From Candidatus Nealsonbacteria bacterium (GTDB taxonomy: Bacteria > Patescibacteriota > Minisyncoccia > Minisyncoccales > GWA2-38-27): 64,000 nt of DNA. Of the stretch, positions 2,815-40,587 are shown one piece after another. A program made the position numbers and the translations under genes. The notes beneath the pieces are model-generated. The model saw only the letters and a program-made list of their open reading frames with translations, was not told the DNA's origin and did not search any database. Location of the stretch: contig JAUWWC010000001.1 of the NCBI GenBank assembly GCA_030617105.1, positions 4,759-68,758 of the forward strand, given 5' to 3'. The first letter of the stretch is position 1. Each line of letters begins with the position of its first letter.

Positions 2815-3321
2815 ATGTTTATTCAAAAAAGACAATTTAGAAGAAGAACATTTGAAAAGAAAAAAGAAGAGTTTGACTCAAAACTCTTGGATTTGGCGCG
2901 TGTCACCCGGGTAACAGCTGGTGGTCGACGTCTTCGCTTTCGGGCAGCAATGGTGATTGGAGACAAGAAAGCAAGAGTTGGTTTTGGAATAGCTAAAGGA
3001 AAAGATGTTGCTCAAGCAGTAGAAAAAGCAACCAGAAAGGCTAAGAAAAACTTGATTAAGGTCCTAATTGTGAATGAGACAATTCCCCATCCAGTAGAAG
3101 CAAAATTTGGAGCAGCCAGAGTTATGTTAAAACCTCAAAGGAAAGGGAGAGGATTGGTAGCAGGAGGAACCATCCGGATTATCTGCACTTTGGCTGGGAT
3201 AAAGAACATTTCTTCAAAAATTATTGGTAGAACAGGAAACAAAATTAATAATGCTAAAGCTACAATTAAAGCGTTAAAAGAATTAAAACATGCAGATACA
3301 TCAACTAAAACCAAAACATAA
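2815..3321 (+). CDS. rpsE: 30S ribosomal protein S5
   Basis: LLDLARVTRVTAGGRRLRFRAAMVIGD S5 dsRBD signature. Confidence 0.85.
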   Translation: MFIQKRQFRRRTFEKKKEEFDSKLLDLARVTRVTAGGRRLRFRAAMVIGDKKARVGFGIAKGKDVAQAVEKATRKAKKNLIKVLIVNETIPHPVEAKFGAARVMLKPQRKGRGLVAGGTIRIICTLAGIKNISSKIIGRTGNKINNAKATIKALKELKHADTSTKTKT

Positions 3322-36934: not shown

Positions 36935-38331
36935 ACAATTTAACTATAAGCCAAGCTCATAAAGGACTTTTAGAAAAGAAATTTTCAGCATTAGAATTAA
37001 CCAAGTTATTTTTAAATAAGATTAAGAAGCAGGATAAAAAGATTTCTGCTTTTTTAACAATTACTGACGATTTAGCTCTTTCTCAGGCAAAACAAGTTGA
37101 TAAATTGATTTCAGACAATAAAAAGATTCCAATTTTAGCTGGAATTCCTTTGGCTGTTAAAGATAACATATTAGTTGATGGGGTAAAAGCAACTTGCGCT
37201 TCTAAAATCCTTGAAAACTACATTGCTCCTTATGATGCAACCTGTATTAAGAAACTTAAACAACCTGGAGCTGTAATTTTAGGGAAAACCAATCTGGACG
37301 AATTTGCTATGGGTTCTTCAACAGAACATTCTGCCTTTTCTCCGACTAAAAATCCCAATGATTTGACCCGAGTGCCTGGAGGAAGTTCTGGAGGGTCAGC
37401 AGCAGCTGTTTCTGCTGATTTATGCTGTTATGCCCTTGGTTCTGACACAGGCGGCTCCATTAGGCAGCCAGCTTCTTTTTGCGGGGTAGTTGGATTAAAG
37501 CCAACCTATGGAGCAGTTTCCCGTTATGGTTTAATTGCTTTTGCTTCTTCTTTAGATCAAATTGGTCCTATTACAAAGACAGCAGAGGATGCGCAGATTG
37601 TATTTAAAGCTATTTCTGGAAAGGACAAGAAAGATTCAACATCAGTAGAGCTATCAGAGACCCGGGTCTCTGTAAAGCTCAAAGATTTACGAATTGGTAT
37701 TCCCAAAGAATATTTTATTAAAGGAATGGATTCAGAGGTAGAAAAGATAATTAGACAAGCAATTAAAAAAATACAAGAAATAGGAGCAAAGGTTGAAGAA
37801 ATCAGTTTGCCTCATACAGAATATGGATTAGCTGTTTATTACCTTATTATGCCTTCTGAGGCTTCAGCTAATTTAGCAAGATATGATGGAGTTAAATACG
37901 GGTTATCCAAATCTGCTAAAGATTTGTTAAATGTATATTTGGATAGCAGGGCAGGGGGGTTTGGAGATGAGGTTAAGAGGAGGATTATGCTGGGCACATA
38001 TGCATTATCTGCAGGTTATTACGACGCATATTATTTGAAAGCTCAGAAAGTTAGGACTTTGATTAAGCATGATTTTGATAAGGCCTTTAACAAAGTTGAT
38101 GCTATTTTTACTCCTACTTCTCCATTTCCGGCTTTCAAGCTTGGAGAAAAGATTAAAGATCCTGTTTCAATGTATCTTTCTGATATCTTTACTGCTTGTG
38201 TAAATTTAGTGGGTCTGCCAGCTGTTTCTATGCCAGTTGGGTTTGCAGGAAAACTTCCAGTTGGTTTGCAGATTATTGGAAAGCCATTTGAAGAAAATAA
38301 AATATTAGAAATTAGCAAGGTCTATGGATAA
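36931..38331 (+). CDS. gatA: Asp/Glu-tRNA(Asn/Gln) amidotransferase subunit A (amidase signature family)
   Basis: GGSSGGSAAAV amidase signature; KDN catalytic context. Confidence 0.85.
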   Translation: MNNLTISQAHKGLLEKKFSALELTKLFLNKIKKQDKKISAFLTITDDLALSQAKQVDKLISDNKKIPILAGIPLAVKDNILVDGVKATCASKILENYIAPYDATCIKKLKQPGAVILGKTNLDEFAMGSSTEHSAFSPTKNPNDLTRVPGGSSGGSAAAVSADLCCYALGSDTGGSIRQPASFCGVVGLKPTYGAVSRYGLIAFASSLDQIGPITKTAEDAQIVFKAISGKDKKDSTSVELSETRVSVKLKDLRIGIPKEYFIKGMDSEVEKIIRQAIKKIQEIGAKVEEISLPHTEYGLAVYYLIMPSEASANLARYDGVKYGLSKSAKDLLNVYLDSRAGGFGDEVKRRIMLGTYALSAGYYDAYYLKAQKVRTLIKHDFDKAFNKVDAIFTPTSPFPAFKLGEKIKDPVSMYLSDIFTACVNLVGLPAVSMPVGFAGKLPVGLQIIGKPFEENKILEISKVYG

Positions 38332-38824
38332 TATATTTTCTATTATAACATCTGCAACATTTTTATTTTATCTAAAGATTGCTTTCATAATTATTGGCGC
38401 GCTTTTCTCGCTTGCTATTGTTTTTCTTCTTTCAAAAAACACTTGGTTTAAGCGCCGCTTTTTAGAGGATTGGACAGAATTCTTTATTTATCGTCCATTT
38501 GGAGTAAAGAAAACCTTTAAGCAATGGGCTAAAGTTTTGAAAAGATTGGATACTGGCAAAGAAGCAGATTATAAATTGGCTTTAATTGAGGCAGACAGTT
38601 TGCTTAATGATATTTTGAAGAAAATAGGATATAAGGGCAAGACAATGGCAGAGATGTTAGAGCAGCTTGATTCAAAAACTTTGCCTAATATAGAGCAGAT
38701 TTGGAAGACTCATAAAATACGTAATAATGTTGTTCATGACCCAGATTATAAGTTGAGTTTGGAGGATGCAAGAAAAGCGCTGGGAATCTACGAAAAAACC
38801 TTCAGGGATTTAGAGATGTTTTGA
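38324..38824 (+). CDS. hypothetical membrane-anchored protein (166 aa)
   Basis: N-terminal TM; no family recognised. Confidence 0.5.
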   Translation: MDNIFSIITSATFLFYLKIAFIIIGALFSLAIVFLLSKNTWFKRRFLEDWTEFFIYRPFGVKKTFKQWAKVLKRLDTGKEADYKLALIEADSLLNDILKKIGYKGKTMAEMLEQLDSKTLPNIEQIWKTHKIRNNVVHDPDYKLSLEDARKALGIYEKTFRDLEMF

Positions 38825-38833
38825 TTAAAAAGC

Positions 38834-38869
38834 AAAGCCTGGCTTATCGGTACCGATAAGCCAGGCTTT
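38834..38869. terminator. perfect 36-nt palindrome (18-bp stem centred on GGTACC), probable bidirectional terminator
   Basis: AAAGCCTGGCTTATCGGT/ACCGATAAGCCAGGCTTT read directly. Confidence 0.6.
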
Positions 38870-38908
38870 TAGCTTTCCTTGATTTTTTTATAAAAATATA
38901 ATATAATG

Positions 38909-39190
38909 GGCCTGCGGGGTGGAGAAGTAGTATCTTGCGAGGCCCATAAACTTTTTGTGGCCCAGAGTAGTAATATTCTGCGGAAAAATTCTCTAAATTG
39001 CTGGAAAGCCCATAAGGGTAATCAGCAGCCAAGGTCGTCTAGGGCGACAAGGTTCAGAGACTATAATGGGAACTTCCTTTTTAAAAGGAAGATGGTATAG
39101 TCCGTTCCATCTAGAAATAGATGGCTAACATTAAAGAACCTCGAGACACAGGTGCAATTCCTGTCCCCGCGACTAGTATTCTTTAGAATT
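38909..39190 (+). ncRNA. candidate structured non-coding RNA of unknown class, downstream of a TATAAT box at 38903-38908
   Basis: ~280 nt without convincing ORF; multiple GC-rich local stems (GGGCC...GGCCC, CCCATAAGGG); identity not established. Confidence 0.25.
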
Positions 39191-39191
39191 T

Positions 39192-39977
39192 ATGAATTGG
39201 TCAATACAGGAAGAAAATAAACTTCGGGAACTTTATTTGAATACTTCACTTACTTTGAGTGAAATCGCCAAGAAGTTGGGACGAACTCCTCCAGCATTAA
39301 ATAATAGATTGGCCAAGATGAAAGTTAAAAGAAGGTTGACTCCAAATTCTAAACATCCTAAAAGAATAACCCCAGCTTTGGCAAGAATTCATGCTCATAT
39401 TTGTGGAGACGGATGCATTTATAGTTATCAAGCGAGAGATGATTATGGTTATTGGGCAAAATATCGAAAGAACACTATGCGTATTAGATATAATCTTAGT
39501 TATTGTAATACCAATAATGATCTTTTAAAAGAATTTAAAACAGATATTTATGAAGTGTTTGGGGTAAGAGGAAAGAAAATACATCAAAACGCAATTATTG
39601 TAGATTCAAAAAGGATTTGGGAATTTTTAAGAAATATGGGCGCGGGCGATTCGTTTAGTTGGTATATTCCAAAAGAAATTAGCAATGGTTCAAAAGAAGT
39701 AATGAAAAATTGGATTAGAGCATTTTTTGATGATGAAGCCTATTTTAATGATAGTGGTAGAATCAGAGTAAAATGTGTTAATAAACAAGGACTTAAACAA
39801 CTTACTAAAATGGTTAATAATTTTGTTCCTTGTAATCTTAGACCAAAGAGAGGTTCTTACTGGGGTAAAACTTTTTGTATAAGTATAAGCAAAAAAGACG
39901 CTCCAAAGTTTTTTTCGAAAATAGGATCAATTCGTTATAAGCCGGGGAGTAGAATGGTATCTAAGGCCGTCTCATAA
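39192..39977 (+). CDS. LAGLIDADG-family homing endonuclease-like protein with N-terminal HTH; 3' end runs into tRNA-Met
   Basis: HTH LTLSEIAKKLGRTPPALNNRLAKM; two LAGLIDADG-like motifs (AHICGDGCIY and RAFFDDEAYF); stop codon lies in the tRNA anticodon loop. Confidence 0.5.
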   Translation: MNWSIQEENKLRELYLNTSLTLSEIAKKLGRTPPALNNRLAKMKVKRRLTPNSKHPKRITPALARIHAHICGDGCIYSYQARDDYGYWAKYRKNTMRIRYNLSYCNTNNDLLKEFKTDIYEVFGVRGKKIHQNAIIVDSKRIWEFLRNMGAGDSFSWYIPKEISNGSKEVMKNWIRAFFDDEAYFNDSGRIRVKCVNKQGLKQLTKMVNNFVPCNLRPKRGSYWGKTFCISISKKDAPKFFSKIGSIRYKPGSRMVSKAVS

Positions 39978-40011
39978 GCGGTCAAAGTGGGTTCGATTCC
40001 CGCTCCCGGCA
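39941..40011 (+). tRNA. tRNA-Met-like (anticodon CAT) with short D-loop and short variable loop
   Basis: Hand fold: acceptor GCCGGGG/TCCCGGC, D-stem TAGA/TCTA, anticodon loop CTCATAA, T-arm GTGGG-TTCGATT-CCCGC, discriminator A. Confidence 0.5.
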
Positions 40012-40014
40012 CAT

Positions 40015-40088
40015 GCGGGTGTAGCTCAATTGGATAGAGCCCTGGATTGTCGATCCAGTGATTGCCGGTTCGAGTCCGGTCGCCCGCG
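40015..40088 (+). tRNA. tRNA-Asp (anticodon GTC)
   Basis: Hand fold: acceptor GCGGGTG/CGCCCGC, D-arm GCTC-AATTGGATA-GAGC, anticodon arm CTGGA-TTGTCGA-TCCAG, T-arm GCCGG-TTCGAGT-CCGGT. Confidence 0.8.
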
Positions 40089-40095
40089 CATAGAT

Positions 40096-40587
40096 ATGCC
40101 ACTCACACCATTTCATTGGGGGCCAAGTTCTTGGATAGGACTAGCTCTATTTAAGATTTTAGATTTTCCAGCTCTGATGATGGCTAGTGTTGTAGTTGAT
40201 ATAGAACCCTTTTGTGTTCTTTTATTTAATTTGAATTATCCTCTTCATGGATTTTTTCATAGTGTTTTGGGTGGTTCAATATTGGCAATTTTAACAGCTG
40301 TAGTTTTATATTTTTTGCAAGGCAAGATTAAAAAAATAATGGCTGTTTTTAAATTAGCTCAGGACTCGTCATTTAAAAAAATCCTCGTCACCTCATTTTT
40401 CGGTGTTTATTTCCATATTCTTTTAGATTCATTTCTCTATAGCGAGATAAAGCCATTTTATCCTTTAGAAATTAATCCATTTTTAGGATTATTTTCTGTC
40501 TCCCAAATTTATCTTTTCTGCGCCCTCTCCTTCTTAGTTGGAATTCTGCTTTACTTGATTAAACTAGCAAGAAGTAAAAATAATTGA
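40096..40587 (+). CDS. polytopic membrane protein, possibly DUF4184/YdjM-like membrane-bound metal-dependent hydrolase (start trimmed out of the tRNA)
   Basis: MPLTPFHWGP N-terminus and His-containing TM segments; family assignment is a weak recollection. Confidence 0.45.
   Translation: MPLTPFHWGPSSWIGLALFKILDFPALMMASVVVDIEPFCVLLFNLNYPLHGFFHSVLGGSILAILTAVVLYFLQGKIKKIMAVFKLAQDSSFKKILVTSFFGVYFHILLDSFLYSEIKPFYPLEINPFLGLFSVSQIYLFCALSFLVGILLYLIKLARSKNN

Follow-up and report, generated by a model that had tools for sequence, protein, structure and literature searches.

We show that a 64,000-nucleotide (nt) stretch of contig JAUWWC010000001.1 from a Candidatus Nealsonbacteria bacterium (the window, whose numbering is used throughout) contains, at 38913-39172 on the plus strand, a tRNA(CAU) gene split by a group I intron that carries no open reading frame (ORF). 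Directly downstream on the same strand lies HE1 (39192-39977), a free-standing gene for a putative homing endonuclease of 261 amino acids (aa) that joins a helix-turn-helix (HTH) domain to two LAGLIDADG motifs. Comparison with related loci shows that HE1 behaves as a mobile gene, being polymorphic in its presence at the syntenic site and discordant with the genes that flank it. We propose, with moderate confidence, that the split gene is the initiator tRNA-fMet and HE1 a mobile insertion beside it, and that HE1 would home into the junction between tRNA-fMet and tRNA-Met and the intron would be co-converted with it. Of the three options that an earlier note had offered for this region, an intron-bearing RNA gene and a free-standing endonuclease thus both hold, in combination, but a degenerating intron is not supported.

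The same note had described 38909-39190 as structured and had allowed that it might be a standard non-coding RNA unrelated to the ORF. Structured it is, but a search against Rfam returned a group I intron, with a full-length match to RF00028 at 38938-39124 (model positions 1-253; 84.4 bits against a threshold of 50, E = 5e-20), and both ends of the region proved to be the halves of a further tRNA(CAT) that had been missed. Exon 1 of this gene, tRNA(CAU)-1, spans 38913-38947 and comprises the 5' strand of the acceptor stem, the D-arm and the 5' strand of the anticodon stem as far as the anticodon CAU; the intron occupies the next 189 nt (38948-39136), between tRNA positions 36 and 37; and exon 2 (39137-39172) supplies A37-A38, the 3' strand of the anticodon stem, the variable loop, the T-arm and the 3' strand of the acceptor stem, ending at the discriminator A with no encoded CCA. 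ARAGORN in its intron mode (0-400 nt) did not detect the split gene, and the exons were joined by hand. When ligated in silico at 38947|39137, they yield a 72-nt tRNA that ARAGORN calls as tRNA-Met(cat) and that is identical at 72/72 positions to the uninterrupted tRNA of a close relative, locus L118, and at 71/72 to those of loci L121, L123 and L125. The uninterrupted alleles read ...GCGAGGCCCAT^AACCTCGAGAC... at the splice junction, and it is because the ligated exons match these intron-less alleles that the intron boundaries can be placed at 36/37.

To score the structure, we aligned 15 related intron-bearing pre-tRNAs over the four tRNA arms and P1-P9, with P7 treated as a pseudoknot. Pairing was found in 97.1% of cells, compared with 38-46% when the partners were slid, and none of 500 shuffles reached the observed values. 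Changes on both sides were seen in 45 of 76 pairs, distributed over P2, P3, P6a, P8, P9, the anticodon stem and the T-stem, while P4, P6 and P7 are invariant. To judge from this pattern of substitutions, the split pre-tRNA is under structural selection. In P1, an internal guide pairs with the sequence on the 5' side of the intron, GUG with CAU, and U38947, which is the U of CAT, forms a U.G wobble; the U38947.G38957 pair is U.G in all 15 intron-bearing relatives, and the terminal G of the intron (39136) is an invariant column of the alignment. The window intron is of the self-splicing type, and guanosine-initiated self-splicing is predicted for it. The intron of the Azoarcus pre-tRNA-Ile(CAU) is likewise about 200 nt long and ORF-less, and its 5' splice site immediately follows a CAU that pairs with a GUG guide; the window intron shares the small size, the absence of an ORF and the CAU-GUG pairing of P1, but its host tRNA looks like an initiator rather than Ile2. 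A profile of the introns at 36/37, which we call type A, resembles published tRNA introns weakly, with 15-25 bits, and never more than 25, against the examples taken from Table S5 of PMC13011429, and these scores do not separate IC3, IA1 and IB2.

tRNA(CAU)-1 is probably, although not provably, the initiator tRNA-fMet. Besides the CAU anticodon, all 15 type A sequences have an A11:U24 pair in the D-stem, and at position 1:72 they carry a mismatch (C/A or A/A) in 7 cases, U.G in 5 and U-A in 3. In distant HE1 loci the same position is held by a canonical bacterial initiator, CGCGGGGTGGAGCAG...GGGCTCATAACCC, with GGG/CCC, and it is on this continuity of position, together with the CGCGGGGTGGAG 5' end that they share, that we base the assignment. 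The tRNA also has some unusual features of its own: its T-loop, UGCAAUU, carries G55 in place of the near-universal U/Psi55 in 15/15 sequences, its D-loop is the 7-nt AGUAGUA, and its anticodon loop, CCCAUAA, has C33 where U33 is expected.

The 261-aa ORF with an HTH and two LAGLIDADG-type motifs, which the earlier note had read at this site, is borne out by family alignment, an AlphaFold (AF2) model and Foldseek alike. The model (mean predicted local distance difference test, pLDDT, 89.4; residues 255-261 below 50) opens with an N-terminal domain of three helices, joined by a basic linker to two alpha-beta-beta-alpha-beta-beta-alpha halves. The N-terminal domain, of the Myb/HTH DNA-binding kind (residues 1-45, 39192-39326), has helices at 5-17, 22-29 and 33-42; Pfam HTH_24 and Myb_DNA-bind_6 match it, both under cut-off, and its PHROG matches are to the N-terminal regions of phage HNH endonucleases. 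Helices 61-72 and 168-182 are each followed by a strand and carry the two motifs. Motif 1, ALARIHAHICGDG (residues 62-74, 39375-39413), reads LARIHAHICGD73G, in which L63, A64, R65, H67, H69, D73 and G74 are invariant among 50 sequences; motif 2, NWIRAFFDDEA (residues 173-183, 39708-39740), reads WIRAFFDDE182A, with W174, F178, F179, D180 and A183 invariant and E182 present in at least 90% of the 50. The two acidic residues, D73 and E182, both sit at motif position 8. In the family alignment the conserved part of the protein stops at KIGSIRY(K), residue 250.

The best fold matches of HE1 are I-DmoI (template modelling score, TM, ~0.72) and intein endonuclease domains, with E values of about 1e-9 to 1e-10 and probability 1.0. 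HE1 thus shares with I-DmoI and the archaeal intein or intron endonucleases their fold and the presence of both motifs in one chain, the motifs closing with Asp and Glu (D21 and E117 in I-DmoI). It differs in its added N-terminal Myb/HTH domain and basic linker, in being free-standing and bacterial, and in an identity of only ~19%. We count about 57 full-length homologs in the HE1 family, sharing 42-82% identity and drawn mostly from Patescibacteria; several members have precomputed matches to PF14528. One member, at 44% identity, lies behind a tRNA-fMet split by another type of intron (type B, below) in a genome labelled Candidatus Omnitrophota (L003, JBFMBZ010000104.1), and the arrangement is therefore not restricted to Patescibacteria. 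The nearest relatives outside the family are archaeal LAGLIDADG_3 proteins of ~210 aa that lack the N-terminal domain, and no rRNA or intron matches were found around the 8 archaeal loci checked. Since the ratio of nonsynonymous to synonymous substitution (dN/dS) against three relatives is 0.11-0.16, that is, since HE1 is under purifying selection, we take the protein to be functional, and the conserved motifs and fold suggest that it would be an active homing endonuclease.

Two samples of loci bear on the mobility of HE1. Among 117 related HE1 loci, the gene nearly always lies 11-25 nt 3' of a tRNA(CAT), the distance rising to ~130 nt in distant members, and its 3' neighbours in close relatives are a second tRNA(CAT) and then tRNA-Asp. 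The second sample was anchored on the upstream neighbour gene, so that loci were picked whether or not HE1 was present. The MreB-GatC-GatA-166aa context is conserved across these neighbour-anchored loci, and the comparison with the orthologous tRNA locus that the earlier note had recommended turned up seven independent syntenic loci that have neither ORF nor intron (L118, L121, L123, L125, L128, L138 and L142), with only 0-11 nt between tRNA-fMet and tRNA-Met. Because the slot is empty in these seven loci, HE1 is an insertion into a tRNA-tRNA spacer. Moreover, the HE1 of locus L137 is 95.6% identical to that of the window at the nt level (94% in protein), whereas the flanking genes of the two loci are only 82% (gatA) and 74% (neighbour gene) identical, a discordance which shows that HE1 has moved horizontally.

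The same slot after tRNA-fMet can hold a different protein. In four loci it is occupied by HE2, an HTH protein of 226-229 aa unrelated to HE1 (L119:3846-4535, L134:2821-3510, L130:2709-3389 and L145:1501-2190), and the HE2 family, often located behind a type A intron, counts at least 289 proteins of Parcubacteria. Sequence and structure comparison detected no relatives of HE2 in sequence or fold. One feature of HE2 recalls LAGLIDADG domains: helix 95-109 closes with an invariant E109-G110, and a strand comes next.

In the mechanism that we propose, the whole unit would be transcribed from the tRNA promoter (38879-38907), the intron would leave the pre-tRNA by guanosine-initiated self-splicing, restoring the CCCAUAA anticodon loop, and HE1 would be translated at a low level from unprocessed transcript. 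HE1 would then cut HE1-less alleles at the tRNA-fMet|tRNA-Met junction, a site that its own insertion splits; repair off the HE1-bearing copy would install the gene ("intronless homing"), and co-conversion would often take the nearby intron along ("trans homing"). The insertion site of the intron is separated by 37 bp from the 3' end of the tRNA and by 56 bp from the start of the ORF, and it is this proximity to the tRNA 3' end that makes co-conversion plausible, since homing is expected to co-convert sequence within ~60 bp of a break (PMC3984707). Co-conversion would account for the intron having been seen only at loci with an ORF in the slot, and for HE1 occurring also beside uninterrupted tRNAs. 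The placing of the target draws on L137, which has HE1 but no intron: its tRNA-fMet is identical at 72/72 positions to that of the empty-site locus L118, and its tRNA-Met at 72/74 to that of the empty-site locus L125. A target wholly within either tRNA would therefore exist in HE1's own genome, and so a target that spans the junction is favoured.

The distribution of introns speaks both for this coupling and for the view that intron and HE1 are unrelated selfish or neutral elements lodged independently in a conserved tRNA cluster, the intron having been inherited or spread by reverse splicing or recombination and the co-occurrence reflecting sampling or shared ancestry. We regard that view as unlikely, but it is the alternative that best survives the evidence. 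The 44 dereplicated HE1 loci divide into about 22 with an uninterrupted tRNA, 14 with a type A intron and 8 with a type B intron, which is Azoarcus-like and inserted at 33/34, 3 nt from the type A site in the same loop; that 22 of the 44 tRNAs are uninterrupted speaks for independent residence. So does the reassortment of the two elements, which co-conversion would fit as well, the window intron being closest to the introns of HE2 loci (91% and 88%) while the window HE1 is closest to that of the intron-less L137, and so does the existence in many phyla of tRNA-fMet introns lacking a homing endonuclease gene (HEG) (PMC13011429). On the other side, within the same narrow clade of neighbour-anchored loci the intron is present in 3/5 occupied slots but in 0/7 empty ones (one-sided Fisher p = 0.045), and over all dereplicated loci in 24/47 occupied against 0/7 empty slots (p = 0.011). 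At least six further HE2 homologs have a type A intron directly 5', detected because the intron and 3' exon were translated in their over-called N-termini, as does HE2 in L145, and the expectation of co-conversion close to a break, cited above, also argues against independence. In L082 (2261-2788) the type B intron in tRNA-fMet carries a PF11645 PD-(D/E)XK gene (E = 9e-42), and an intron of this kind is also present at L084, upstream of 3001, with HE1 just 3' in both; two endonuclease genes are therefore found at one tRNA.

Several observations weigh against the coupled mobile insertion that we favour. The association of intron with occupancy is suggestive only: it draws on 12 related loci, is marginal, becomes p = 0.11 once the window locus is left out, and its p value ignores shared ancestry; the marginal significance suits independent residence. 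A single fixed target across the junction is hard to reconcile with an empty-site spacer of anything between 0 and 11 nt, and in distant HE1 members, which lack a tRNA-Met on their 3' side, the right half-site must be a different one. On the protein side, Pfam LAGLIDADG_3 reaches only 17.9 bits on the window HE1 against a cut-off of 22.5, and HE2, the companion of the window intron's closest relatives, cannot be shown to be a nuclease. As to the initiator, the window has a U1.G72 wobble and not a mismatch at 1:72, and the base of its anticodon stem (A29-U41, G30-C40, G31-C39) has two consecutive G-C pairs and not three. Nuclease activity, cleavage site and splicing are all three inferred.

Strict collaborative homing, in which HE1 would cut the anticodon loop itself and the intron would protect it, as for F-CphI and psbA or the DNA polymerase gene of phage PhiI, is improbable. 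An ORF-less intron 19 nt from a free-standing endonuclease gene is just what this model envisages, and two intron types at sites only 3 nt apart in one loop beside HE1 also fit it. We favoured it at first and dropped it on account of the HE1 loci with uninterrupted tRNAs: the genomes of 22 dereplicated loci of this kind would cut themselves, and L137 is the clearest example, with an HE1 94% identical in protein and a tRNA that matches the ligated exons of the window at every position. The L137 tRNA identities that point to a junction-spanning target thus also disfavour this model.

It is quite improbable that HE1 is a domesticated LAGLIDADG protein without nuclease activity, acting either as an intron maturase or, in the manner of WhiA, by regulating the tRNA operon through its HTH. 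The purifying selection (dN/dS ~0.12) would suit such a role, WhiA is among the weaker fold matches of HE1 (Foldseek, E ~1e-5), and the intron is seen only with an ORF in the slot. But WhiA lacks catalytic residues, while the acidic D73 and E182 are conserved in HE1, and the HTH is C-terminal in WhiA but N-terminal in HE1. HE1 is moreover patchy among near-identical syntenic loci and horizontally transferred, unlike a regulator of the WhiA type, which would be inherited vertically and almost universally. As for a maturase, LAGLIDADG proteins with this function exist, for example in Thermotoga (PMC3984707), but half of the HE1 loci have no intron to mature and the same intron type also pairs with the unrelated HE2.

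The earlier note had further described the ORF as fused onto a tRNA-Met-like gene. Its observation that the ORF stops inside the anticodon loop of a tRNA(CAT) is correct: the TAA at 39975-39977 is formed by the last anticodon base and positions 37-38 of tRNA(CAU)-2 (39941-40011; Rfam 37.8 bits against a cut-off of 29, and ARAGORN), so that HE1 has no stop codon of its own and its frame reads into the tRNA. The term fusion is nevertheless misplaced, as the ORF proper lies outside the intron and both tRNAs and the tail encoded by the 5' half of tRNA(CAU)-2, KPGSRMVSKAVS plus TAA (39942-39977), is not conserved. Among 34 related loci that have such a downstream tRNA, 27 have the stop inside it, most commonly at the conserved U8-A9-G10, read as TAG; in the window this TAG is out of the HE1 frame, and translation would continue to the anticodon-loop TAA. 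Read-through into the next tRNA also occurs with canonical tRNA-Met genes, and an almost identical tail encoded by the tRNA is found at the end of two HE2 proteins. The overlap is therefore best seen as a by-product of minimal insertion, recurrent in the family. Cleavage by RNase P at 39941 would leave a non-stop HE1 mRNA.

tRNA(CAU)-2 itself, a low-scoring variant with a short D-arm (3-bp D-stem), is intact and conserved, and is either elongator tRNA-Met or Ile2; a canonical tRNA-Met takes its place in the closest empty-site relatives. We considered that the ORF overlap might have degraded it, and rejected this since the same variant is kept in L039 and L065 with compensatory changes in its stems. 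It is very improbable that the ORF is an insertion remnant fused to a decaying tRNA-Met-like gene, as first headlined, for although the ORF terminates in the anticodon loop of tRNA(CAU)-2 and the latter scores only 37.8 bits with its short D-arm, this tRNA is complete, its variant is maintained by the compensatory changes just mentioned, no intron signal overlaps it in the Rfam search, and read-through with a non-conserved overlapping tail is common across the family.

Beyond the window, we tentatively raise a wider reading, which is possible but doubtful: the tRNA-fMet/tRNA-Met/tRNA-Asp cluster of Patescibacteria would be a chromosomal arena for trans homing, in which at least two unrelated families of free-standing genes, HE1 and HE2, insert into the spacer 3' of the initiator tRNA and, by co-conversion, mobilise ORF-less introns of this essential tRNA that would otherwise be immobile. 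Both genes would borrow the tRNA promoter and a stop from the next tRNA (U8-A9-G10 or the anticodon-loop UAA), and the non-stop mRNA left by RNase P processing could limit nuclease dosage.

The cluster contains other inserts as well. A third and clear LAGLIDADG_3 gene (E = 3e-12) lies in the tRNA-Met|tRNA-Asp spacer of L138/L139 (2955-3635), and more than one spacer of the cluster therefore hosts endonuclease genes. Inserts of ~130-150 nt follow tRNA-Met and tRNA-Asp in L138 (2819-2960) and L142 (2780-2925 and about 3002-3150); a direct repeat of ~20 nt of the tRNA 3' end flanks each, they have the motif GCAATGCCTTCGGGCAAC in common, and they look like a small unexplained element aimed at tRNA 3' ends. 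In L132/L133 (2568-3608) an insertion sequence element with an rve-family transposase, on the minus strand, lies between the 166-aa gene and tRNA-fMet. Several metagenome contigs (L120, L122 and L124) end within exon 1 of tRNA-fMet or within the intron, which is the expected outcome where strains present together differ in the intron or ORF that they carry at this place.

The remaining features of the window locus concern its expression and its borders. A terminator-like 16-bp hairpin at 38834-38869, listed on the minus strand, bounds the tRNA operon on the left; on the plus strand it stands directly 3' of the stop of ORF 38324-38824 and ends the upstream 166-aa gene. The promoter-like site TTGATT-17-TATAAT (38879-38907, plus strand), 5 nt 5' of the tRNA end, is the top promoter match within 38700-40400 (10/12 positions) and includes, at 38902-38907, the TATAAT box already noticed 5' of the structured region; an CTTGATTTTTTT...TATAAT block is also present 5' of the tRNA in syntenic relatives. 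In the same interval the plus strand has no second strong promoter and no terminator ahead of tRNA-Asp. The 19-nt spacer between tRNA(CAU)-1 and HE1 (39173-39191), CTAGTATTCTTTAGAATTT, gave no match to a Shine-Dalgarno sequence, a promoter or a terminator in a sequence scan, and unlike it, neighbouring genes in relatives carry AAAGGAGA. At the far end, 3 nt past tRNA(CAU)-2 as the earlier note had it, tRNA-Asp(GUC) (40015-40088; Rfam 66.2 bits, and ARAGORN) is the final gene of the conserved cluster and is kept after tRNA(CAU)-2 in most related loci.

The pairing of an endonuclease with a separate intron has so far been described mainly in phages. ORF-less introns accompanied by free-standing endonucleases are known for F-CphI and psbA in cyanophage S-PM2 and for an HNH endonuclease and DNA polymerase in phage PhiI, and trans homing in phages is represented by mobE of T4 with the I-TevIII intron (PMC3984707). 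As in these pairs, the window has an ORF-less intron of the self-splicing type in a conserved gene with an endonuclease gene adjoining it, the two being separable and reassorting (PMC3984707; see also PMC2790892). The window differs in that the setting is a bacterial (Patescibacteria) chromosome, the host gene a tRNA gene, and the endonuclease a LAGLIDADG protein, not an HNH or EndoVII-like one. Given that HE1 often occurs without an intron and that its target is probably not the intron site, the system is nearer to trans homing of the mobE type than to strict collaborative homing.

Introns in tRNA-fMet genes are known at position 33/34 (PMC13011429). The cyanobacterial tRNA-fMet system of I-Ssp6803I, an intron-encoded PD-(D/E)XK enzyme, also links a group I intron in the initiator anticodon loop to an endonuclease, and the type B introns near distant HE1 members share its 33/34 position, L082 having the same PF11645 gene; the window intron, by contrast, is an ORF-less type A intron at 36/37, accompanied by an endonuclease of another family whose gene stands outside the tRNA. 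Among Patescibacteria, group I introns have been reported in tRNA genes for Asn, Asp and Thr (Nakagawa et al., mSystems 2026, PMC13011429). Those introns are likewise compact, placed in anticodon loops and missed by standard tRNA finders, but the window intron interrupts tRNA-fMet at 36/37, and the endonuclease gene is not part of it. LAGLIDADG endonucleases such as I-ShaI drive insertions in rRNA genes of the Candidate Phyla Radiation (CPR) (Tsurumaki et al. 2024, PMC11270868), and HE1 resembles them as a LAGLIDADG homing endonuclease associated with insertions into CPR structural RNA genes. The I-ShaI type, however, consists mostly of single-domain homodimers encoded inside the rRNA insertion, and HE1 is a double-motif protein with an HTH encoded between genes. 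A literature search of limited coverage found neither a free-standing LAGLIDADG family between tRNA genes nor the pairing of a free-standing LAGLIDADG endonuclease with tRNA-fMet introns, and a tRNA-fMet intron at 36/37 in Patescibacteria was not found in the literature covered, which did not include the Patescibacteria rows of Table S5 of PMC13011429.

Our findings have practical and evolutionary implications. As the initiator tRNA is invisible to standard tRNA finders, annotations of such genomes will list tRNA-fMet as missing. HE1 would be a compact LAGLIDADG-HTH enzyme that probably recognises a tRNA-tRNA junction, with a possible use in enzyme engineering. The survey of tRNA introns sought endonuclease genes only inside the introns and inferred limited mobility (PMC13011429), and an endonuclease gene lying just outside the tRNA suggests an overlooked mobility route where that survey concluded that most are immobile. 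If the tRNA cluster does act as an arena for trans homing, the conclusion that HEG-less tRNA introns are largely immobile will need revision. Pairs of free-standing endonucleases and ORF-less introns, known from few phages, have been proposed as precursors of mobile introns; the locus family described here shows such pairing in cellular genomes and makes this origin model directly testable. Its natural alleles include loci with no element, with the endonuclease alone, with endonuclease and intron, and with HE1 beside an intron that has an internal endonuclease gene, and if the arena reading is true, all intermediate stages of the origin of mobile introns coexist in one natural system.

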